Below are positions 6,471 through 64,000 of a stretch of DNA of 64,000 bases, piece after piece (positions within the stretch are counted from its first letter, which is position 1; the number at the start of each line of letters is the position of its first letter). The DNA comes from Escherichia coli. Lineage in GTDB: Bacteria; Pseudomonadota; Gammaproteobacteria; Enterobacterales; Enterobacteriaceae. The position numbers and the translations under genes were made by a program. Location: assembly GCF_001677475.2 (NCBI RefSeq), contig NZ_CP015229.1. One strand, 5' to 3'. The notes beneath the pieces are model-generated. The model worked only from the letters and a program-made list of their open reading frames with translations, had not been told where the DNA came from and ran no database searches.

Positions 6471-7789
6471 GTGAATTTTCCCAGACAGTCCCCGAACTGG
6501 TTGCCTGGGCCAGAAAAAATGACTTCTCCATCTCGCTGCCGGTAGACCGACTCTCTTTTCTGCTGGCGGTTGCCACGCTGAACGGCGAGCGTCTGGATGG
6601 TGAGATGAGTGAAGGCGAGCTGGTGGATGCATTCCGCCATGTGAGTGATGCGTTTGAGCAAACCAGCGAAACCATCGGCGTGCGCGCCAACAACGCGATC
6701 AACGACATGGTGCGTCAACGTCTGCTGAACCGCTTTACCAGCGAGCAGGCGGAAGGGAACGCAATTTACCGTCTGACGCCGCTCGGCATCGGCATTACTG
6801 ACTACTACATCCGTCAGCGCGAGTTTTCTACGCTGCGCCTTTCTATGCAGTTGTCGATTGTGGCGGGTGAGCTCAAACGCGCAGCAGATGCCGCCGAAGA
6901 GGGCGGTGATGAATTTCACTGGCACCGTAATGTCTATGCGCCACTGAAATATTCGGTAGCAGAAATTTTTGACAGTATCGACCTGACGCAACGTCTGATG
7001 GACGAACAGCAGCAGCAGGTGAAGGACGATATCGCCCAGTTGCTGAACAAAGACTGGCGGGCGGCGATCTCCAGCTGTGAATTGTTGCTTTCGGAAACTT
7101 CCGGAACGCTGCGTGAATTGCAGGATACGCTGGAAGCGGCAGGCGACAAATTGCAGGCTAATCTGTTGCGCATTCAGGATGCGACGATGACCCATGACGA
7201 TCTGCATTTTGTCGATCGTCTGGTGTTCGATCTGCAGAGCAAACTCGACCGTATTATCAGTTGGGGCCAGCAATCCATAGACTTGTGGATTGGCTACGAC
7301 CGCCACGTACACAAATTTATCCGTACCGCAATCGATATGGATAAAAACCGCGTCTTTGCTCAGCGGTTACGTCAGTCGGTACAAACCTATTTTGATGAGC
7401 CGTGGGCGCTAACTTATGCCAATGCCGATCGTCTGCTGGATATGCGTGACGAAGAGATGGCACTGCGCGATGAAGAAGTGACTGGAGAACTTCCTGAGGA
7501 TCTGGAGTACGAAGAGTTTAACGAGATCCGCGAACAGCTGGCGGCGATCATCGAAGAACAACTCGCCGTGTACAAAACCAGACAAGTGCCGCTGGATCTT
7601 GGTCTGGTGGTACGCGAATATCTGTCACAGTATCCGCGTGCACGTCACTTTGACGTTGCGCGCATTGTTATTGATCAGGCGGTACGTCTTGGCGTAGCGC
7701 AAGCAGATTTCACCGGACTGCCAGCGAAATGGCAGCCGATTAATGATTACGGAGCCAAGGTACAGGCGCATGTCATCGACAAATATTGA
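6467..7789 (+). CDS. mukF: Chromosome partition protein MukF (kleisin)
   Basis: 440 aa; matches recalled MukF N-terminus [18 protein letters not shown]. Confidence 0.9.
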
Positions 7790-8474
7790 ACAAGTGATGC
7801 CGGTTAAGCTGGCGCAGGCGCTGGCGAATCCGTTATTTCCGGCGCTGGATAGCGCCTTACGTTCAGGCCGCCATATTGGCCTCGACGAACTGGATAATCA
7901 TGCATTCCTGATGGATTTTCAGGAATATCTGGAAGAGTTTTACGCGCGTTATAACGTTGAGCTTATTCGTGCACCGGAAGGGTTCTTCTATTTACGCCCA
8001 CGTTCCACCACTCTTATTCCTCGTTCCGTCTTGTCGGAACTGGATATGATGGTCGGGAAAATCCTCTGTTATCTCTATCTCAGCCCGGAACGGCTGGCGA
8101 ATGAGGGGATTTTTACTCAACAGGAACTGTACGACGAACTGCTCACCCTGGCCGATGAAGCGAAACTGCTGAAACTGGTGAACAACCGTTCAACCGGTTC
8201 AGACGTTGACCGGCAGAAGTTGCAGGAGAAAGTACGTTCTTCGCTCAACCGTCTGCGTCGTTTGGGCATGGTGTGGTTTATGGGCCACGACAGCAGCAAG
8301 TTCCGCATTACCGAATCGGTGTTCCGCTTCGGAGCCGATGTGCGTGCTGGCGACGATCCCCGTGAAGCACAGCGTCGCCTGATTCGTGATGGCGAAGCAA
8401 TGCCGATTGAAAATCATCTGCAACTCAACGATGAAACCGAAGAGAGTCAGCCAGATAGCGGAGAGGAAGAATAA
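7770..8474 (+). CDS. mukE: Chromosome partition protein MukE
   Basis: ATG at 7770 (MSSTNIEQ) overlapping mukF 3' end; 234 aa. Confidence 0.85.
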
Positions 8475-11400
8475 TGATTGAACGCGGTAAATTTCGCTCA
8501 CTGACGCTGATTAACTGGAACGGTTTTTTTGCCCGAACTTTTGACCTCGATGAGCTGGTTACGACGCTCTCCGGCGGTAACGGGGCGGGTAAATCCACCA
8601 CCATGGCGGCGTTCGTTACGGCGCTGATCCCCGACCTGACCCTGCTGCATTTCCGTAACACCACGGAAGCCGGGGCCACCAGCGGTTCGCGCGATAAAGG
8701 TCTGCACGGTAAGCTGAAAGCGGGTGTCTGTTATTCGATGCTCGACACCATTAACTCGCGCCACCAGCGCGTGGTGGTCGGTGTGCGTCTGCAACAGGTT
8801 GCCGGACGCGATCGTAAAGTGGATATCAAACCGTTTGCCATTCAGGGACTGCCGATGTCGGTGCAGCCGACACAGCTGGTGACCGAAACTCTGAACGAAC
8901 GCCAGGCGCGCGTGCTGCCGCTTAACGAGCTGAAAGACAAGCTCGAGGCGATGGAAGGCGTGCAGTTTAAACAGTTCAACTCCATTACCGATTACCACTC
9001 GCTGATGTTCGATCTGGGCATCATCGCGCGTCGTCTGCGCTCCGCATCTGACCGTAGCAAATTCTATCGTCTGATCGAAGCTTCGCTGTATGGCGGGATC
9101 TCCAGTGCCATTACCCGTTCTCTGCGCGACTACCTGTTGCCGGAAAACAGCGGAGTGCGTAAAGCGTTCCAGGACATGGAAGCGGCACTGCGTGAAAATC
9201 GCATGACGCTGGAAGCGATTCGTGTCACCCAGTCGGACCGTGACCTGTTTAAGCATCTGATCAGCGAAGCCACCAACTACGTGGCGGCGGACTACATGCG
9301 TCACGCCAACGAGCGCCGTGTCCATCTCGACAAAGCCCTGGAGTTTCGTCGCGAGCTACATACTTCGCGTCAGCAACTGGCGGCTGAGCAGTACAAACAC
9401 GTCGATATGGCGCGTGAGCTGGCAGAGCACAACGGTGCCGAAGGCGATCTGGAAGCGGATTATCAGGCGGCCAGCGATCACCTGAACCTGGTGCAAACCG
9501 CACTGCGTCAGCAGGAGAAGATCGAACGCTACGAAGCGGATCTCGATGAGCTGCAGATCCGTCTGGAAGAGCAAAACGAAGTGGTGGCAGAAGCCATCGA
9601 ACGCCAGGAAGAGAATGAGGCTCGTGCGGAAGCTGCCGAACTGGAAGTGGACGAGCTGAAAAGCCAACTTGCTGACTACCAGCAGGCGCTGGACGTCCAG
9701 CAAACGCGCGCGATCCAGTATAACCAGGCGATTGCTGCGCTTAATCGTGCCAAAGAACTGTGCCATCTGCCGGACTTAACCGCCGACAGCGCCGCCGAAT
9801 GGCTGGAAACCTTCCAGGCGAAAGAGCTGGAAGCGACTGAAAAAATGCTCTCTCTTGAGCAGAAAATGAGCATGGCGCAAACCGCGCACAGCCAGTTTGA
9901 GCAGGCTTATCAGCTGGTGGTGGCAATCAACGGCCCGCTGGCGCGTAACGAGGCGTGGGATGTCGCTCGCGAACTGCTGCGCGAAGGGGTCGATCAGCGT
10001 CACCTGGCAGAGCAGGTTCAGCCGTTGCGGATGCGCTTAAGCGAACTGGAACAGCGTCTGCGCGAACAGCAAGAAGCTGAGCGTCTGCTGGCAGATTTCT
10101 GCAAACGTCAGGGCAAGAATTTTGACATTGACGAGCTGGAAGCTCTGCATCAGGAGCTGGAAGCACGCATTGCCTCTCTTTCCGATAGTGTGTCTAACGC
10201 CCGTGAAGAGCGCATGGCACTGCGCCAGGAGCAGGAACAGCTGCAGTCTCGCATTCAGAGTTTGATGCAGCGTGCACCGGTTTGGCTGGCAGCGCAAAAC
10301 AGCCTCAACCAGTTGAGCGAACAGTGCGGCGAAGAGTTCTCTTCCAGCCAGGATGTCACCGAATATCTGCAACAGTTGCTGGAGCGTGAGCGCGAAGCCA
10401 TTGTTGAACGCGATGAAGTAGGCGCGCGCAAAAACGCCGTCGATGAAGAGATCGAACGTTTAAGCCAGCCAGGTGGTTCTGAAGACCAGCGTTTGAATGC
10501 GCTGGCGGAGCGTTTTGGCGGCGTGCTGCTGTCAGAAATTTATGACGACGTTAGCCTGGAAGATGCGCCGTACTTCTCGGCGCTGTATGGCCCGTCCCGC
10601 CACGCCATCGTGGTGCCAGATCTGTCACAGGTAACCGAACACCTGGAAGGTTTGACCGATTGCCCGGAAGATCTCTATCTGATCGAAGGGGATCCGCAGT
10701 CATTCGATGACAGCGTGTTCAGCGTTGATGAGCTGGAAAAAGCGGTGGTGGTGAAAATCGCCGATCGTCAGTGGCGTTACTCACGTTTTCCGGAAGTGCC
10801 GCTGTTTGGACGCGCGGCGCGCGAAAGCCGCATCGAAAGCCTCCATGCCGAGCGTGAAGTGCTTTCCGAACGCTTCGCCACGCTCTCCTTTGATGTACAG
10901 AAAACCCAGCGTCTGCATCAGGCGTTCAGCCGCTTTATCGGCAGCCATCTGGCGGTGGCGTTTGAGTCTGATCCGGAAGCCGAAATCCGTCAACTGAACA
11001 GCCGTCGCGTCGAACTGGAGCGGGCGTTGAGTAATCATGAAAATGATAACCAGCAGCAGCGTATTCAGTTTGAGCAGGCGAAAGAGGGTGTTACGGCGCT
11101 GAACCGCATTCTGCCGCGTCTCAACCTGTTGGCTGATGATAGCCTGGCAGATCGCGTCGATGAAATCCGCGAACGTCTGGATGAAGCCCAGGAAGCCGCG
11201 CGTTTTGTTCAGCAGTTTGGCAATCAACTGGCGAAACTGGAACCGATCGTTTCGGTATTGCAGAGCGACCCGGAACAGTTCGAACAGTTAAAAGAAGATT
11301 ACGCGTACTCTCAGCAGATGCAGCGCGATGCCCGTCAGCAGGCGTTTGCCCTGACGGAAGTGGTGCAGCGTCGTGCGCACTTTAGCTACTCTGACTCGGC

Positions 11401-56792: not shown

Positions 56793-57812
56793 CTACTTAC
56801 TGACCACAAGCGGCAAATCCAGTGTTGGCGTGATTTTGGTTTTACGATCGTAAATCAACACCTGATTTTCTGTTTTGTGTCCACTGAAAATTTGTTTGTC
56901 GCGACTGCTGCCTTCGTAATCTGAAATCCCTTTGGCTTTTATGTCATGGAAGTTGCACCCAAACGGAACGCCGGCTTTTTGCTCGGCTGCACGTTTAGCC
57001 TGATTCCACCAGTTGTTCAGCGTCTTGGCTATTACCTTCCCGCCTTTGGTTGTGTTGATCACATACTCGCATGTGCCGGAAGATACATTTCGGGCTAACT
57101 GGATCGCCGTACGTAATCGCGGAGACCATTCCTTGATTTGTTTAGTGCCAGTCTTGTTTTGCTCAATGTAAATCCCTTTATCCATAATATCCTGCCATTT
57201 CAGCTCGAGTACATCACCGAGCCTTGCCGCACAAAGATAGGATATCTCCATTGCAATACGTAACTGTGGAATTGCTTCCGCATATATTGCTGCATACTGT
57301 TCATCGGTGATGTAAACAGTACGGGCTTTAAGTGTGAATTTTCTGACACCTTTGCATGGATTATTTTTCACATACCCACGCTCATATCCCCATCCGTATA
57401 CACGGCTCAGACTTGCCAGTTCATGGTTTGCCTGGGTCTTGCTCTCAAGTCCTCGCTTATCCATGAAAATTCTTACCTGTTCAATTTTTACATTATCAGC
57501 AAGCACTTTTCCGAATACTGCCAACAATGCCCTTTGATGTTGCCGATAATCTTTTTGGGTTCGGGGGGCCAGTTCTGTAAATGCAGGGGAGTCCATAAAC
57601 ATGTGCCATAATTTAGCTACTGTCATTATGTTGTGGAGTTTTGCTTTTTCCAGCTCATAATTTTGCCAGACTTTAGCTACGCTGGTTTCCCGCACTCTTC
57701 CGAGCCCTATAGTTCTTGTGCTTCCTTCGGGTTTCCATACGTAACTGTAACCGTTCGATCTAACACGCGGTGGTAGTGCATTATCTTTTTTGTTTTTTCT
57801 TGGTCTTCCCAT
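56793..57812 (-). CDS. int: Tyrosine-type site-specific integrase (lambda Int family)
   Basis: 339 aa; C-terminal catalytic region GHKTENQVLIYDRK resembles lambda Int LLGHKSDTMASQY; 3' end faces the att site. Confidence 0.9.
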   Translation of the reverse strand: MGRPRKNKKDNALPPRVRSNGYSYVWKPEGSTRTIGLGRVRETSVAKVWQNYELEKAKLHNIMTVAKLWHMFMDSPAFTELAPRTQKDYRQHQRALLAVFGKVLADNVKIEQVRIFMDKRGLESKTQANHELASLSRVYGWGYERGYVKNNPCKGVRKFTLKARTVYITDEQYAAIYAEAIPQLRIAMEISYLCAARLGDVLELKWQDIMDKGIYIEQNKTGTKQIKEWSPRLRTAIQLARNVSSGTCEYVINTTKGGKVIAKTLNNWWNQAKRAAEQKAGVPFGCNFHDIKAKGISDYEGSSRDKQIFSGHKTENQVLIYDRKTKITPTLDLPLVVSK

Positions 57813-58032
57813 TGTTCAGCGCCTCAAAATCGGGTTCAGCGGAAACCAGCTCAGGTGCTTTTGGCATCGTTGTCAGTCCGTGTGGAATATCCCTGCGAAG
57901 AACTATTGGTTCGTTTTTAGGACCGATTACAAATGGGATGCCGTGCAGCCTTAACTGGTGTTGCTGTTTTGTGTATCGCTCGTATTTCGTGATCTCTTGA
58001 ATCTCTGCTGGCGATAGAGTTAATTCGTACAT
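57781..58032 (-). CDS. xis: Excisionase-like protein (lambda Xis-like)
   Basis: 83 aa, N-terminus MYELTL and basic C-terminal tail KTKKKQKR resemble lambda Xis; overlaps int start by 32 nt. Confidence 0.6.
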   Translation of the reverse strand: MYELTLSPAEIQEITKYERYTKQQHQLRLHGIPFVIGPKNEPIVLRRDIPHGLTTMPKAPELVSAEPDFEALNNGKTKKKQKR

Positions 58033-58098
58033 GTGGTCACGTGCCTTACAGCATGACCGCCGCCAATATAATTCGGAGACGGCGATCAGGGGTGAACA

Positions 58099-60549
58099 TT
58101 AAAAATCAACCGGATTCGGGATCAGTTTTTGCCAGATTGCTGAAACGTATTTTGCCTGGTAACGAGCGTCATCAAGTGCATTATGGCGCTCACCTTCGAA
58201 TGGGATAGCTGTTCTGGCATCGAAGTCTATGGCTTTCCCCAGCTCAACGATTGTGCGTACATCGCGATCGTTGCAGTAGCGCCAAGGGCAGGGGATACCC
58301 TGTCGTTCGTATGAACGGCGTAAAATCACGTTGTCGAAGTTGGCCCCATTACCCCAGACCTGAACAAAAAATTCACCGGAGTTTTCGTCGATAAATTCCC
58401 GCAATTGCAGCAGTGCATCATCTAACGGGATTTCATCGGTCAGAATGGCAGATTGCGCCTCGCGTGATTGCTTAAGCCACCATTTTATGGTGTCACGATT
58501 AATGACTCCGCCAGCAGTTTCCAGATCGATGGTCTTACTAAATTCCGGCCCCATATCTCCGGTTTGCGGATCGAAAAATATTGCACCTATTGAGATAATC
58601 GGGGCATCGGGATTTTTTCCCATGGTTTCAAGGTCGATCATAAGATGGTCACATGACCTGCTTGTGGATGTGATATTGTGATAACCGTTCACCTTAATTA
58701 AGGGATCTGTTGCTTCGCCAGTTTCATTATCGCTGGCGTGATGCTGATTGCCTCCAGTGTTCTCCTTGTGTGGATGTTCAGCGCCTTCCATTTCCTCCGG
58801 ATCATTCTCCTGAGCTTCAACCTGATTCTCTTCATCGAATGTTTCCTGGTATGTTGCGTTTCCCATGACCGCGCCACAGTCAGGACAGTTGCCGCCGCTG
58901 CTCTGACCGCAGACGGTGCAGACTTTTTCCGGTTCCTGTTGCACTACTGGTTCGGATTGTTTCGTTTCTGGTTCGTTTTGTTGCGCATTTGGGCTGTTTT
59001 GTTCCGCTTTCTGGTCGTTCTGTGCCGTTTCTTGCTGGTTCTGGTTCACAGAATCGCGGGTTTCAATCCCCTTCACCCATTTCGGATCATTCGGGTCGCT
59101 AATCCCTGCAACAAATTCACCACGTGATGCAGCGAGCAACTGACTGGCGTCAGGCAGGCTGATATTGGCTGCCTGCATAATTTTGTTTACTTCGTCAGCG
59201 GTAACTTTTACCTGATTAACCGGATCTATCTGTGCCTGAGTATCCAGCGATTGCGTGTCCTGGCGAAGTTCAGTTGTATCCGGCTCCATTGCTTCAGTCG
59301 TTGCCTGTTCATCTGCCATTGCGTCAGACGGTTGTGATTTTTCATCATTATTTTTTTCTTCTTCTGTTTCGCGTTTAGCAGCCAGTTCGCGGTTAACTTC
59401 TTCCTGGATATCTTTTTCCGGTGTATGTCGTGCAGCAGCGAGAGTTTCTTCGGTAGGGTTCTCGTGATCAGTCTCCGTTAAGTGGGCGTTGATATACTCC
59501 TGAAGGCGTCCCGGGTAGAGATAAAGTTCAGGGTGAGCACTTCGGATAAGTGCAAAAATAGCGGCACGGGAATAATCCAGAATACCAGGGGTTGCGCGAA
59601 GTGCTGCGGACCATTCTTTGAACGGACTTTCTTTCTTCCGGACGACTTCTTTTGCGCGACGATAAACGCTGCCCGGAATTTCATAAATATTAAAATCCAT
59701 CGGAAGTGTGGCCGCTGCAATCTCCACATCCAGCGTATCGAAGGTGTGTACTAAATTCGGATTGCGATCGGTTTTGTTCCCGCCGCCAGCATTAGCACCG
59801 GAAGCCGTGCGGATGATGCGTGAAACACGATTCCCCTTCATCCACTCTTTTGTAAGCAGACCGCGATCGGTGTAGTCAGCGCCCAGGTATGCTTCGAAAA
59901 AAGCAGTCATCAGTCCCAGGTCTGAATTGCCAGGATTAGGGAAAACTTTGTCAGTGTCACGAACCAGTTTGTGGAGATCGCGAATTTCCAGCGGTTCGAG
60001 TTGCGCTGCTTTATTTGAGATGGCCAGCGCGGTAACGGCGGGAAGTTTTTCATCCTGTGCGTTATGTAATGCGCGCAGTTCGCCCCGCGAAACGTGAGTG
60101 ATCGGTTTTTCGCTGCCGTGCTGAGCAAGCCAGCGAATGGGAAGTATCTGGCCAGAAACCGGGAGTAGCATATTCTCCTCAATATCAGTCATGTCTTCGC
60201 CGTTGACGTTGGTATTGTCAGTGCTGGCTGGTTTATCCTGAACAGAGGGCGCGATAAATACCATTGTGATACCATCTTCCCCGCCTTTTTCGTATCGGTT
60301 GCAGAATTCGGTATCAAACACACCTTCCGGAGGCAGGTCATTCACAACGGGTAAATGGACGCGGACGGGTTTTTTAAAGTCGTCTTCATCATAATCGTTG
60401 TCATCCATTGCGGTAATACAACGGGAGATGGCAACAGATAATTTTTTTGCTGTGGTCCAGTAAAAACCACCTTTAATTCCCAGGCGTTTTCTGACTTTGT
60501 CATTTTTTGCTTCGCAATATAGCGCAAATTCTTCTTTTTCAGTGCTCAT
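58099..60549 (-). CDS. Large prophage protein: unknown N-terminal domain, acidic/Gln-rich low-complexity linker, CxxC-x9-CxxC zinc ribbon, C-terminal DnaQ-like (DEDDh) 3'-5' exonuclease domain
   Basis: 816 aa; exonuclease motifs IDLETMG (Exo I), WGNGANFDNVIL (Exo II), HNALDDARY (Exo III) in last ~185 aa (about 58102-58656); SD GAGG 7 nt upstream of ATG. Confidence 0.75.
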   Translation of the reverse strand: MSTEKEEFALYCEAKNDKVRKRLGIKGGFYWTTAKKLSVAISRCITAMDDNDYDEDDFKKPVRVHLPVVNDLPPEGVFDTEFCNRYEKGGEDGITMVFIAPSVQDKPASTDNTNVNGEDMTDIEENMLLPVSGQILPIRWLAQHGSEKPITHVSRGELRALHNAQDEKLPAVTALAISNKAAQLEPLEIRDLHKLVRDTDKVFPNPGNSDLGLMTAFFEAYLGADYTDRGLLTKEWMKGNRVSRIIRTASGANAGGGNKTDRNPNLVHTFDTLDVEIAAATLPMDFNIYEIPGSVYRRAKEVVRKKESPFKEWSAALRATPGILDYSRAAIFALIRSAHPELYLYPGRLQEYINAHLTETDHENPTEETLAAARHTPEKDIQEEVNRELAAKRETEEEKNNDEKSQPSDAMADEQATTEAMEPDTTELRQDTQSLDTQAQIDPVNQVKVTADEVNKIMQAANISLPDASQLLAASRGEFVAGISDPNDPKWVKGIETRDSVNQNQQETAQNDQKAEQNSPNAQQNEPETKQSEPVVQQEPEKVCTVCGQSSGGNCPDCGAVMGNATYQETFDEENQVEAQENDPEEMEGAEHPHKENTGGNQHHASDNETGEATDPLIKVNGYHNITSTSRSCDHLMIDLETMGKNPDAPIISIGAIFFDPQTGDMGPEFSKTIDLETAGGVINRDTIKWWLKQSREAQSAILTDEIPLDDALLQLREFIDENSGEFFVQVWGNGANFDNVILRRSYERQGIPCPWRYCNDRDVRTIVELGKAIDFDARTAIPFEGERHNALDDARYQAKYVSAIWQKLIPNPVDF

Positions 60550-60639
60550 TGATAAACCTCATTACAGATTTAAGGGTGAACAAATCCCTGCCATTGCTGG
60601 CATATAAAAATGAAACCGGATATTTATTACTGTGCTGTT

Positions 60640-60831
60640 TTAAAGTCCTGCCGGGACTTCGTTATTATCCATGCGAATAACTTTATCGACCGGATAACAG
60701 TTACCGGGAATTTTTTGTTCTGCTGCGGCAGCCATGCATTCTTTCATTGAACCGTATAAGCCAGTCACCAGCTCAAGAGATTCGCCGGAAACAAGATAAA
60801 CTGTCAGAACGAGTGCAAATGTTGTATTCAT
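60640..60831 (-). CDS. Hypothetical small protein (63 aa) with hydrophobic N-terminal segment
   Basis: ATG preceded by AAGGA SD; start overlaps upstream stop (ATGA); sequence MNTTFALVLTVYLVSG suggests signal/TM segment. Confidence 0.55.
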   Translation of the reverse strand: MNTTFALVLTVYLVSGESLELVTGLYGSMKECMAAAAEQKIPGNCYPVDKVIRMDNNEVPAGL

Positions 60832-61016
60832 TGTTTATATCCTTTTTGCCGCAGGTCCAGACGAGCCAGCATTGAAGGAATGCATACTTCATTTAACAGG
60901 TCCTGCTCGAGTGTTCTCTGCTTAATGGCGTCTTCAATAAATGTTTTGTCTCCGGTGATAACGCCAATTTCGAAACGAAGTTCAGACGTACTGGCATTGC
61001 ATGATAACTTTTCCAT
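60828..61016 (-). CDS. Hypothetical small protein (62 aa)
   Basis: ATG preceded by GAGGA SD at 7-nt spacing; translationally coupled to downstream 63-aa gene. Confidence 0.55.
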   Translation of the reverse strand: MEKLSCNASTSELRFEIGVITGDKTFIEDAIKQRTLEQDLLNEVCIPSMLARLDLRQKGYKQ

Positions 61017-61033
61017 TATCGCGTCCTCAACAA

Positions 61034-61186
61034 TGAATTTTGTGATGCGGTGCCTGGTGCCTCCAGGTGACGTTAACCAGTTAACAATTAACGCCGGAGT
61101 ATTTCACGTTACGCCAGTAAAGGACCGCTTTACTGTTTTAACTGTTCCGCGTGCGCTTAGCCGCATTCACCGCATCACAAAATTCA
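61034..61186. repeat. 19-bp perfect inverted repeat (TGAATTTTGTGATGCGGTG / CACCGCATCACAAAATTCA) flanking a 115-bp hairpin-rich spacer
   Basis: Arms at 61034-61052 and 61168-61186; spacer holds nested hairpins cctgg-tgcct-ccagg, cgttaa...ttaacg and cagtaaag-gaccg-ctttactg; no ORF over 26 aa on the minus strand across 61017-61573. Confidence 0.7.
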
Positions 61187-61573
61187 CTTTAAAAAGGGCG
61201 GACATCAGCCAGCAATGAAAACTGATGCCGCCAAAGGTACCAATCAACATGGAGTGTTGCGGCGGGGTTGTCACTCAGGCGTATGGTCAACCTGACAACC
61301 CGGTGTCACCAGTGGGGGTAAGGAAAACCCCGCCATACTTACCGCCGCGCCATTTCGCGGAGTGCCACAACCGGAAGCGCACGGTCGACGAAAATTTAAC
61401 GACAGGCTATCTATGAACCATAAACCTCGCCGTGCGCTTTCGCGTTATGCCCTGACTTTTCAGGGAAATATCCTTTCAGTAAACTGTCAGTGCCGGATGT
61501 TCACCCGTGTCCGGCGCACGCACTCCACCTCACCCGTGGAGAACCCCTTAATTACCAACCCTCAGGAGAGTGA

Positions 61574-61807
61574 ATGTTAAAATCAACTCTTATTGCTAAA
61601 TGCCTTTATCAAAATCGCATGGTAAGCAGCATTTCAATAGGCGAGTCTGCAGTTAAAAGTATTTTCGAAGAGTTCTTTCCCGGGCATGATTTTAATAAAT
61701 GGAATACCAAATTACCGCCAGCAGTTTCAACGCGTATTCTGAAAGCAACTGAAAGAGCAAGTACAATTCGCGTTAACTATTTCATTAAAGATTTGTGGGA
61801 TCTTTGA
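61574..61807 (+). CDS. Hypothetical AT-rich small protein (77 aa), opposite orientation to neighbours
   Basis: ATG preceded by AGGAGA SD; low GC relative to surroundings; 3' end overlaps convergent 135-aa gene by 23 bp. Confidence 0.45.
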   Translation: MLKSTLIAKCLYQNRMVSSISIGESAVKSIFEEFFPGHDFNKWNTKLPPAVSTRILKATERASTIRVNYFIKDLWDL

Positions 61808-62192
61808 TATCCACAGAGCCTAAAGTATGTGCATATGGATGTGCTATTGTGCGCCCTCGCAGATTTGCATCATTTTCTAAATTCACTGAACGAAACAGGG
61901 CATCAACAAGGCTCTGTACAATGCAAAGGCAATCGAAGACTGTCGCTGTTTCTGTTTTGATTGATGAAAGAACATGGCCATTCACGCAAACAGAAATTAC
62001 CCGTTCATTAACATCGCTTTCCTGCTTTTGATTATCAGAACTATATAGCCCAGAAAAAGCATTGCGCACATTATGAACCATATTATCGATGGTTTCTTTT
62101 TCTACGGTACTCAGGTCAAGAGTCGCCAGTTGAGAACGAACTATATTCGCTGCCATTTCCTGGAATGGTACTGGTAAATCTTTAAATTCCAT
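61785..62192 (-). CDS. Hypothetical protein (135 aa; alternative start at 62204 gives 139 aa)
   Basis: ATG at 62192 with GAGG 6 nt upstream; upstream gene stop TGA lies within the ribosome-binding region, implying coupling; no recognisable motif. Confidence 0.6.
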   Translation of the reverse strand: MEFKDLPVPFQEMAANIVRSQLATLDLSTVEKETIDNMVHNVRNAFSGLYSSDNQKQESDVNERVISVCVNGHVLSSIKTETATVFDCLCIVQSLVDALFRSVNLENDANLRGRTIAHPYAHTLGSVDIKDPTNL

Positions 62193-62207
62193 CGTCAACC
62201 TCATCAG

Positions 62208-62423
62208 TCAGTGGTTTTCAATCTCTCGTGAAACGTTTAATGCCGCGCTTTTTGCCAGAGTGGTAATATCCAGCTCCGCTGACGCCAGTTCTTTAGAGAG
62301 GTGCTCTTTGTTGTTAGCAGCCTGTTTCAGGTCATTAATGGCGCGTATCTTCCCGAACATCCATTCGTAAATTTCATCATCGGTATAGCCTGGTGCGATG
62401 ATGGTGGGTTCTGGTTTCTGCAT
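62208..62423 (-). CDS. Hypothetical protein (71 aa)
   Basis: ATG at 62423 preceded by AAGGAG at 5-nt spacing (track ORF starts at an upstream GTG, 62462); first gene of a two-gene coupled unit. Confidence 0.6.
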   Translation of the reverse strand: MQKPEPTIIAPGYTDDEIYEWMFGKIRAINDLKQAANNKEHLSKELASAELDITTLAKSAALNVSREIENH

Positions 62424-62515
62424 GTCAGCTCCTTGTGGTTCGCATTGCCTGCTTTTAACCACGTCAGGCGAGGTGGTATCCTCTGAGGGGTCTGTTACTC
62501 GAGAGGAAATTGGTT

Positions 62516-62716
62516 ATGAATACAATCAAGTTTTCTTGCCCAGAATGTGGTGGCGAAGTCTTTGACACATCCTTTAAGCCGCAGGGCTCTGACAGTTTCG
62601 CGGGAGCCATCTGCAAAAATTGTGGTCACCTTGTAACTGAAGATGAGTCCTCGCAGTTCGATGACGAAATCGTTGATAATATCTTCGGCGCACTCACCAG
62701 AGATTTCCTGAAGTAA
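62516..62716 (+). CDS. Small zinc-ribbon protein (66 aa)
   Basis: CPEC-x19-CKNC motif; GAGAGGA SD 8 nt upstream of ATG; divergent from the 71-aa gene with 92-bp shared upstream region; fewer rare codons than the overlapping antisense ORF. Confidence 0.5.
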   Translation: MNTIKFSCPECGGEVFDTSFKPQGSDSFAGAICKNCGHLVTEDESSQFDDEIVDNIFGALTRDFLK

Positions 62717-63030
62717 AAGCGCATGCCGTTTAGTTACCGCTCTGATCATTCTTACTTGTCCGGTAATGGCGCTGACATCAGTATAAAGCGCCATTGCTGC
62801 TTCTTTGCCGATCCCAGGATGCCTTCCATTCTGATGTTTGACTTCGCCCACTGAGAAATCCTCTGTTTCCCCTTAACGCCGGGGTAGCGGAACAAAAACC
62901 TGCTGCATAGTTAAAGTTGAACCCTGCCGTCATGTTCTTACGCCTCGGGCTGGCTACTTAACCCCTGACCACTGCCTGGTAACTCGAAGTATTGCCCTGC
63001 GTTTTGTGGGGCGGGGTGGGTTAGTAAAAA

Positions 63031-63052
63031 TAGTTTATACAAAAATAAACTA
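63031..63052. repeat. 22-bp palindrome TAGTTTATACAAAAATAAACTA (candidate operator or structural site)
   Basis: Perfect 8-bp arms around a 6-bp AT core, in the 400-bp non-coding gap between the zinc-ribbon gene and the ParE-like gene. Confidence 0.5.
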
Positions 63053-63116
63053 AACAGTCAATATGCAACTTAACTCTTTGGCGAGGATAACCCCTGTTGA
63101 GAGGGGCTTCGGGGGA

Positions 63117-63404
63117 TTAAGGTGTTACAGGGAACTGTCGGCGGGCGTGAACTACGCTAACAATTTCAATGCCTGAAATTGTCACGCGGTATAGAATTAT
63201 GTAATTGGGGTGAGCAACAATTTCACGCAAACCCGGAACTCTGTCGCTTGGCGGGTATAAATACGGATGCTCAGATAATGGCAGGACGCAAGTCCTTAAG
63301 CGTTTCCACAAACGTTCTGCCGCATCTATATCAAAACGAGCAATATAGCTAGTTATATCATCCAAGTCGGCATCTGCGCTTTCGAGCCATAAAACCGGTA
63401 ACAT
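63117..63404 (-). CDS. parE: ParE/RelE-family toxin
   Basis: 95 aa; family pattern (LPVLWLESADADLDDITSYIA ... PGLREIVAHPNYIILYRVTISGIEIVSVVHARR); start abuts antitoxin stop (TAAATG). Confidence 0.8.
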   Translation of the reverse strand: MLPVLWLESADADLDDITSYIARFDIDAAERLWKRLRTCVLPLSEHPYLYPPSDRVPGLREIVAHPNYIILYRVTISGIEIVSVVHARRQFPVTP

Positions 63405-63596
63405 TTACTGCTTGCTCCGTTCCTTGCGCATGTTAGCAAAGCGTTCAGCCATTCTGCGTTCAACTTCGTCATGTGGGATGGCTGGACGTGGATCAGCAAG
63501 GCTTGCGGCCACTTTTGCACGCAGCCATTCGTTATAACTATTTTCTTGCTCGATGGTTTCAAATTCAGAAACCATTGGTGAAAGGGCTGTGTTCAT
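63405..63596 (-). CDS. Small antitoxin (63 aa), PaaA-like partner of the ParE-like toxin
   Basis: ATG at 63596 with GAGG SD; immediately upstream of toxin; size and position as in recalled three-component paaR-paaA-parE modules. Confidence 0.7.
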   Translation of the reverse strand: MNTALSPMVSEFETIEQENSYNEWLRAKVAASLADPRPAIPHDEVERRMAERFANMRKERSKQ

Positions 63597-63631
63597 GGCG
63601 AACCTCGTTTTGTAAGTGCTGGTAATTCTGC

Positions 63632-64000
63632 CTAGGTAACTTTTTGTTGTGCTGCTAGCCACCTTGCAACTATACGATCCATTGTCTCTTTTTTTTCCTT
63701 CATATCTTTAAGTATTTGCTGTTGATCTTCCTCTGGAAATGCCTCAAATGTTTGAAGTAGCTCCTTTTGCTTAGGAGATATTTTTAATATATCCTGTGTT
63801 TTGTCTTCTTTTTCTTCATTTAATGGTAAGAAAAACCAATGTTGGGGAAAACCCGTTACTTCAGATAGTTTATCTAGATTAGCTGCTGTAGGGCTTGATA
63901 TACCACAAACCCACCTTTGGACGGATTGTTGAGCAATACCAATTCTGCGCGCAAGCTCTGCTTGACTCCAGCCTTTTTCTAATAGAAGCATCTTAATTCT
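63632..64000 (-). CDS. HTH XRE-family transcriptional regulator (PaaR-like), 5' end beyond window
   Basis: Helix-turn-helix signature GWSQAELARRIGIAQQSVQRW; frame open to window edge; 35 bp upstream of the antitoxin gene. Confidence 0.75.
   Translation of the reverse strand, partial: RIKMLLLEKGWSQAELARRIGIAQQSVQRWVCGISSPTAANLDKLSEVTGFPQHWFFLPLNEEKEDKTQDILKISPKQKELLQTFEAFPEEDQQQILKDMKEKKETMDRIVARWLAAQQKVT

Follow-up and report, generated by a model that had tools for sequence, protein, structure and literature searches.

Three closely packed open reading frames (ORFs) on the minus strand, at the right-hand edge of a 64,000-nt stretch of the Escherichia coli contig NZ_CP015229.1 (hereafter, the window), encode a helix-turn-helix (HTH) protein, a 63-aa protein and a 95-aa protein. 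This arrangement raises the question of whether the HTH protein is the dedicated regulator of a toxin-antitoxin (TA) module or belongs to an operon of a different kind. A preliminary description of the sequence had read the locus as a three-component paaR-paaA-parE module of the type known from E. coli prophages, where the system of CP-933P/Sp12, paaR2-paaA2-parE2, is said to go back to Hallez in 2010. In the explanation favoured here, to which a probability of about 0.85 is given as a whole, the right-hand end of the window falls within the immunity region of a lambdoid, CP-933P/Qin-like prophage located at yccA in the E. coli chromosome. The three visible genes would then be part of a four-gene lysogenic operon, with the HTH protein as a second phage repressor.

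The two small genes encode a pair that has already been described. The 95-aa protein matches ParE_toxin (Pfam PF05016) end to end (residues 4-91, E 1.4e-16) and is 90% identical over 92 aa to crystallised ParE2 (PDB 5cw7_B/5cze; E 2.7e-55 to 5cw7_B). The 63-aa protein, PaaA, is 95% identical to crystallised PaaA2 (PDB 3zbe/5cw7; E 9e-35 to 3zbe), scores 85.6 bits against NCBIfam NF050103 (cutoff 50) and matches phrog_3936 (E 5e-42). The label "RelB family antitoxin" carried by NF050103 is a naming convention and no evidence of a ribbon-helix-helix domain, the DNA-binding domain through which the antitoxins of canonical ParD-ParE type II systems autoregulate their operons; PaaA2 itself is reported to be devoid of a DNA-binding domain (PMC8630535). 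Because of these identities, the pair is assigned as the ortholog of the PaaA2-ParE2 system, known from the paaR2-paaA2-parE2 operon of the cryptic prophage CP-933P/Sp12 of E. coli O157:H7 (Jurenas 2021, PMC8630535), and there would be nothing new in the pair itself. PaaA2 is reportedly degraded by ClpAP and ClpXP, and overexpression of ParE2 induces the SOS response (PMC8630535). Given the 90-95% identity to tested proteins, toxicity, neutralisation and addiction would be expected to work in this copy as well. The ratio of nonsynonymous to synonymous substitution rates (dN/dS) is 0.04-0.07 for parE against copies in other prophages and 0.01-0.09 for paaA across diverged prophage copies, purifying selection on both genes being strong at synonymous divergence of up to about 1-1.6. 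The sizes, coordinates and common strand of the three ORFs in the preliminary description are exact, and the Pfam and PDB matches, together with purifying selection on all three genes, identify them as real genes and not chance ORFs. Its recognition of a known paaA/parE system in an E. coli prophage is likewise borne out by the PaaA2 and ParE2 orthologs, the lambdoid setting and the published description (PMC8630535).

What lies upstream of the TA pair could be followed past the window. An exact-match scan with 63 nt of the window edge returned a single contig, IMGVR_UViG_2721755653_000010 of IMG/VR (L007), which was taken as the true continuation past position 64000 because it is 100% identical to positions 56793-64000 of the window over 7208 nt. 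E. coli SCU-171 (L001) was discarded as the source or continuation, since its match (99.6% identity) is confined to positions 62866-64000. As the preliminary description had stated, the 5' end of the HTH gene lies outside the window: in L007 the gene encodes 131 aa (7716-8111) and starts 27 nt past position 64000, leaving its first 9 codons beyond the window edge. Upstream of it, L007 shows a 30-nt spacer and then the stop codon of a gene for a 123-aa PaaR2-type protein (7314-7685), followed by a 102-bp intergenic region, divergent ydaS-like (95 aa) and ydaT-like (141 aa) genes, and replication genes.

The 123-aa protein is identified as the true PaaR2 ortholog because of its structural match and its N-terminus. 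Residues 1-64, compared by means of the near-identical L001 copy, match the PDB entries 7nkv/8c3k/8c3l, "Phage repressor protein CI" (E 9e-31), and by our own count from the alignment the N-terminal domain is ~88% identical to 7nkv over residues 1-58. Its N-terminus, METKE..., resembles the MQKKE determined for PaaR2, whose gene is leaderless (PMC8630535).

The HTH protein of the window is of another kind. It matches HTH_3 (Pfam PF01381, residues 11-60, E 1e-12), and no peptidase domain was matched in the Pfam scan. Against the NCBIfam model for DicA, PRK09706 (NF007257), residues 17-129 score 56.2 bits (E 3e-15), below the curated cutoff of 101, which would place the protein as a relative of DicA outside the DicA subfamily. 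The best full-length matches in phage genomes (tblastn) are the "CI-like" repressors of Gifsy-1/2, with 34% identity, and the PDB sequence search returned only generic XRE proteins (434 repressor, HipB, SinR), the PaaR2 entry not being among the matches. The C-terminal ~77 aa are 36% identical to those of the PaaR2-type protein, no significant alignment was found between the N-terminal domains, and both proteins fall in phrog_5736 and match the C-terminal region of DicA. In an AlphaFold2 (AF2) model, a five-helix N-terminal domain (predicted local distance difference test, pLDDT, 82-91) is joined by a disordered linker (residues 73-84) to a two-helix C-terminal domain, the latter being of low confidence in this monomer model (pLDDT 46-71). 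The protein is best classified as a short XRE repressor of the DicA/Gifsy class, and it and the PaaR2-type protein as distant paralogs whose DNA-binding domains differ and whose C-terminal domains are related. Orthology with PaaR2 itself is ruled out by the PDB search and by an alignment limited to the C-terminal part. Thus, of the alignment to PaaR2, PaaA2 and ParE2 put forward in the preliminary description, the part concerning the antitoxin and the toxin holds, whereas the HTH protein aligns with PaaR2 over its C-terminal ~77 aa only.

The operon is accordingly read as comprising four genes in the order paaR2-like, dicA-like, paaA and parE. The intergenic gaps are 30, 35 and 0 nt, the stop codon of paaA directly abutting the ATG of parE, and a GAGG lies 6 nt ahead of the ATG of paaA. 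The scan of L007 revealed neither promoter matches above chance nor same-strand terminators between the operon genes, and, because of this and of the short gaps, the four genes are probably co-transcribed. The lone same-strand promoter match within paaR (L007 7483-7512, 9/12), ~200 nt upstream of the start of the HTH gene, corresponds to a chance-level count, and no promoter-like match is present in the paaR-HTH spacer or at the 3' end of paaR in L007. A PRM-like promoter (TTGCTT-17-GATAAT) ends 6 nt before the ATG of paaR in L007, a placement that matches the leaderless layout of paaR2 in CP-933P. The promoter that the preliminary description expected just beyond the 5' end of the HTH gene is thus placed by the extended sequence upstream of paaR instead.

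Further evidence on the identity of the master repressor comes from the early-left (PL-like) promoter downstream of parE (Table 1). On the minus strand, its -35 hexamer TTGACT (63056-63061) and -10 hexamer TATAAA (63034-63039), separated by a 16-nt spacer, recur in the PR-like promoter that L007 carries between paaR and ydaS. The region contains the repeats GTTTAGTTT, TAGTTTAT/ATAAACTA and GGTTAGTAA, and an inverted repeat with 8-nt arms overlaps the promoter. The half-site GTTTAGTAA, of a type published for PaaR2 (PMC8630535), occurs with at most two mismatches at 2.2 per 100 nt at PL and 2.9 at OR, against 0.31 across L007. The region appears to correspond to the PL933P/OL arrangement described for CP-933P (PMC8630535), and its repeats are putative PaaR2-type operators. 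Because the PL-like promoter of the window sits in such repeats, the master repressor of the prophage is predicted to be of the PaaR2 type. At the ydaS/ydaT junction of L007, where the YdaT site has been placed (PMC9986795), an OM-like site for YdaT, TTGATTATCATGAGTCAA, is also present; as a single match it is within chance expectation, and its position is informative.

Comparison of E. coli loci revealed three layouts. Type A is the canonical paaR-paaA-parE form (L003; phage Evi). In type B (L006, from E. coli OkiPb01714), an XRE repressor precedes paaA-parE as the sole regulator, with an operator region of its own and a divergent cro-like gene alongside. Type C, represented by L001, L002, L004, L005 and L007, carries paaR, the XRE repressor gene, paaA and parE. 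Of 5426 complete E. coli genomes, 16 contain the HTH-paaA-parE block of the window and 613 the TA pair; four of the 16 were inspected and, like L007, all are type C with a PaaR2-type gene upstream. DNA comparison resolves type C into a type A OR-paaR block, an XRE segment of ~440-460 bp and paaA-parE. In Salmonella and Klebsiella prophages, members of the same XRE family are found as the sole repressor in the CI position beside ydaS/ydaT, without a TA pair.

Type B loci offer a model for a self-contained three-component module, in which the HTH protein of the window would be a dedicated "PaaR" served by a promoter and an operator of its own immediately upstream. Indeed, their HTH protein, 62-64% identical to that of the window, is the only regulator before paaA-parE and has its own operator region, and the type B regulator with its upstream operator region is present in 36 of the 5426 genomes. 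In L007, however, the HTH gene is preceded by the short spacer and the stop codon of the PaaR2-type gene, the spacer and the 3' end of paaR are free of promoter-like matches, the type B operator motifs are absent, and the PL operators within the window are of the PaaR2 type. A dedicated regulator of this kind is therefore considered highly improbable. What stands of the three-component description is the orthology of paaA and parE; the visible HTH protein is not PaaR2, and the genes number four.

All type C loci share a homologous junction between paaR and the XRE gene, which suggests a single origin of this layout, followed by divergence. A purine run (AAGAGA/AAGATA) upstream of the XRE ATG is found in four of the five loci, the spacer of L005 being shorter and without the run. 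The extra repressor gene is under purifying selection in type C (dN/dS 0.14-0.25 at a synonymous divergence of 0.26-0.49), its ORF is intact in the five loci, and the residues that are invariant in the family (type B E. coli, Salmonella, Klebsiella and Sodalis) are all kept. In L002 (8566-9027), the loss of 1 nt shortly ahead of the stop codon gives a 153-aa protein whose gene overlaps the start of paaA by 32 nt, and a similar 153-aa form with a 32-nt overlap is found in L005 (4580-5041); the extreme C-terminal tail is evidently free of constraint.

These data also bear on whether the extra gene could be a non-functional relic left when two heteroimmune prophages recombined, carried along between a repressor and an addictive TA pair. 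Its dN/dS is higher than that of its neighbours (0.01-0.11), its C-terminal tail varies through the L002 frameshift and the longer L005 form, its cognate operators were not found in cis (see below), and the tandem layout is rare (the 16 genomes above); the selected genes on either side would also slow its deletion. Nevertheless, an ORF that has stayed intact in five loci over such synonymous divergence, with dN/dS well below 1, with every family-invariant residue retained and with the purine-run junction preserved in four of them, argues against this reading, and a functionless remnant appears rather unlikely.

If the extra repressor is functional, the location of its binding sites becomes relevant. 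In L006, OR and PL share 14-bp sites of the form ACAC-N6-AGTT, such as the type B operator ACACTTTAAAAGTT, and the pattern ACACTTWWWAAGTK, with at most one mismatch, has four matches in this locus against 0.07 expected, three of the four lying at OR or PL. The same pattern at the same threshold is absent from L007 and from the 64-kb window, and type B operators sought at up to two mismatches in L007 gave chance-level matches only, distant from the locus. No type B operator region was detected in type C genomes at megablast sensitivity, GF60 alone surfacing, through its HTH gene. The recognition helices of the two types are nearly identical (AQQSVQRW in type C, AQQSVQKW in type B). Whereas the relatives in L006 and L008-L011 adjoin operators and a divergent cro-like gene, the extra repressor does not. 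It seems, therefore, to be without a cognate site in cis, although its family provides the only master repressor of heteroimmune relatives, and the leading inference is that it would act in trans, making the lysogen immune to phages that share the type B immunity. As a separate observation, the fourth L006 match, ACACTTTAAAAATG (9139-9152, one mismatch), lies ~1.3 kb to the left of PL, between the DicB gene and a hypothetical-protein gene, and may be either coincidental or an additional operator.

The main alternative to this role, or an addition to it, may be that the extra repressor assembles with PaaR2 into mixed oligomers held together by the homologous C-terminal domains. An extra repressor acting in cis in this way would retune the CI-like switch, through OR-PL looping or sensitivity to an antirepressor. 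Such an effect is suggested by the 36% identity of the C-terminal domains over 77 aa and their shared DicA C-terminal region and phrog_5736 membership, by the reported octamerisation of PaaR2 (PMC8630535), by the adjacency of the two genes, whose products would be made together, and by the control of short-class repressors by antirepressors (PMC10448788). However, 36% identity does not imply compatible interfaces, the C-terminal domain is modelled with low confidence in the monomer, and no homogenisation of this domain is seen, type B copies being at least as close to that of PaaR as the tandem-form copies. Retuning of the switch by mixed oligomers is consequently a tentative possibility, somewhat doubtful on present evidence. 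A comparably cautious grade is given to the broader proposal of a "dual-immunity" cassette, in which two CI-class repressors held in one lysogenic operon and locked there by the TA pair might serve a second immunity group or form mixed oligomers.

By orthology with CP-933P (PMC8630535; PMC9986795), the locus would be expected to work as follows. In lysogens, a leaderless PRM-type transcript starting at paaR would run on through the extra repressor gene, paaA and parE to a weak hairpin, so that the extra repressor would be co-expressed with PaaR2. PaaR2, as the CI analogue, would repress PR (ydaS-ydaT) and PL, and its competition with the Cro-like YdaS at OR and PL would result in a bistable switch, with YdaT acting like CII. 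The unstable and intrinsically disordered PaaA would wrap around and neutralise ParE, and paaA-parE, transcribed only within the repressor operon, would form an addiction module penalising loss or replacement of the immunity region. Early-left genes, namely the small ORFs, DicF, the DicB-like ORF, the exonuclease gene, xis and int, would be driven by the PL-like promoter.

Several points weigh against this interpretation of the locus. Regarding the TA pair, single-cell work detected no ParE2 activity in any tested state (PMC8630535), and the biological role of PaaA2-ParE2-type pairs is still debated. Co-transcription of the four genes is deduced solely from their spacing. The motif for type B operators was drawn by eye from one locus (L006), the operator scan took in the window and 15 kb of the prophage (59.6 kb in all), and at 62-64% identity to the type B protein the extra repressor could differ in specificity, so that its sites could be missed. 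Lastly, the extra gene is less constrained than its neighbours and its tail is altered in L002 and L005; the repressor could be only weakly useful.

The preliminary description also proposed that the element carries stabilisation or defence cargo. Some TA systems defend against phages. A role of paaA-parE mainly in anti-phage abortive infection would be in line with its location, which is that of rexAB in lambda (PMC9986795). On the other hand, PADLOC gave no matches for PaaA, ParE or PaaR, and the published data concern plasmid stabilisation and addiction, with no detectable activation of ParE2 (PMC8630535). The PADLOC matches of the HTH protein (RmrA, PDC-M64, capH) were rejected as evidence of defence, reflecting the generic HTH domain only. 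Stabilisation of the immunity region by addiction is therefore the part of the proposal that agrees with published work (PMC8630535), and a principal role in defence is regarded as improbable.

Among known systems, the closest is that of CP-933P, with which the locus shares the abutting antitoxin and toxin genes, their position between a CI-like repressor and a PL-like promoter, a PaaR2-type first gene with a leaderless-type PRM, divergent ydaS-ydaT, the PR/PL hexamers and the operator repeats. It differs in having four genes and not three, a 396-nt XRE repressor gene being placed between paaR and paaA, in a ParE of 95 aa in place of 92 aa, and in its insertion at yccA, which is not the CP-933P site; elsewhere, the prophage is mosaic. 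DicA of the Qin prophage and the Gifsy-1/2 repressors belong to the same short class of CI-like repressors, which have no RecA-cleavage domain, with an N-terminal XRE HTH and a short helical C-terminal domain, but the window gene is second in the operon of another repressor, is followed by a TA pair and has no adjoining operator/cro region. Type B, as seen in L006, shares the yccA site, the repressor family, and PaaA and ParE at 97% and 92% identity, respectively; there, however, the XRE protein is the sole repressor, with ACAC-N6-AGTT operators at OR and PL in place of the PaaR2-type ones of the window. This variant is unnamed in the records and papers examined. The layout also recalls cI-rexA-rexB of lambda, where PRM drives accessory genes, lying just upstream of PL, along with the lysogenic repressor gene, an analogy with rexAB drawn in the CP-933P papers themselves (PMC9986795). 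The accessory proteins are nevertheless unrelated, the repressor of the window prophage has no S24 domain for autocleavage, and the operon contains two repressor genes instead of one. The open-access literature, searched for lambdoid immunity regions with a tandem or second repressor, yielded no description of this layout, and novelty is limited to this rare tandem-repressor variant.

The surroundings agree with a chromosomal prophage. The backbone is that of E. coli, with 99% identity to many strains, and the prophage is integrated beside yccA, with an integrase gene (56793-57812), an excisionase-like gene and an 816-aa exonuclease gene. It is mosaic, and no complete E. coli genome covers at least 80% of the last 8 kb. 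The "exonuclease" ORF (58099-60549, minus strand) has a long acidic low-complexity middle, the genes of related prophages being annotated with 2403 to 2493 nt. The possible terminator hairpin (Table 1) starts 11 nt past the parE stop codon and is present in both minimum free energy and centroid folds; the terminator scan did not call it (no T-run), and type A loci show a clearer hairpin with a T-run at the matching position.

Other features were noted in the early-left region, all on the minus strand except where stated. A match to the DicF small RNA (61196-61245; Rfam RF00039) reaches 44.1 bits (gathering score 48; E 1.5e-07), and an STnc100-like match (61039-61184) adjoining it reaches 38 bits against 47. 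A 62-aa ORF at 60828-61016 is possibly DicB-like. Together, these three features suggest a Qin-type dicBF operon driven by the PL-like promoter. Closer to the promoter, overlapping ORFs on opposite strands match phage families: a 118-aa ORF at 62495-62851 (phrog_21318, E 1e-60) and, on the plus strand, a 68-aa ORF at 62510-62716 with two zinc-ribbon-like CxxC motifs (phrog_4852, E 5.5e-10). Just downstream of the PL-like promoter (~62870-63018), a stretch of ~150-170 nt, CCCACCCCGCCCCACA...GGCGTTAAGGGGAAA, is conserved across all three immunity types, and the operators immediately upstream of it differ between them. The region downstream of parE that includes this stretch has no Rfam match and folds no better than shuffled RNA (z = -0.45); candidates for the stretch are a leader, a nut-like region and the 5' portion of a small gene that is conserved.

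Table 1. Coordinates of the lysogenic operon and adjoining signals at the right-hand edge of the window
Feature	Position	Strand	Description
Short GC hairpin CCCCT-CTCAAC-AGGGG, then TTAT	63091..63106	-	Possible weak terminator of the repressor-TA operon
PL-like early-left promoter with putative PaaR2-type operator repeats	63019..63061	-	Assigned from hexamers, half-site density and inverted repeat
parE	63117..63404	-	95-aa ParE-family toxin, assigned as ortholog of ParE2 of E. coli O157:H7 CP-933P
paaA	63405..63596	-	63-aa PaaA2-type antitoxin
Spacer from HTH stop codon to paaA start codon	63597..63631	-	35 nt; includes the paaA Shine-Dalgarno sequence
DicA/Gifsy-class short XRE repressor gene, 3' part	63632..64000	-	369 nt, i.e., 122 codons plus stop

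Thus, an apparent three-component TA module would be a prophage lysogeny operon, whose "regulator" is a phage repressor. This fits the published idea that the TA pair guards the immunity region against its replacement by recombination. The tandem-repressor form offers a test case for cross-talk between short CI-like repressors with a common oligomerisation domain, and for a prophage that carries a spare repressor as immunity cargo. If the dual-immunity proposal is true, proteins with distinct DNA-binding domains and homologous oligomerisation domains would be held together in one cassette, and the bistable switch would be changed if they co-assembled.

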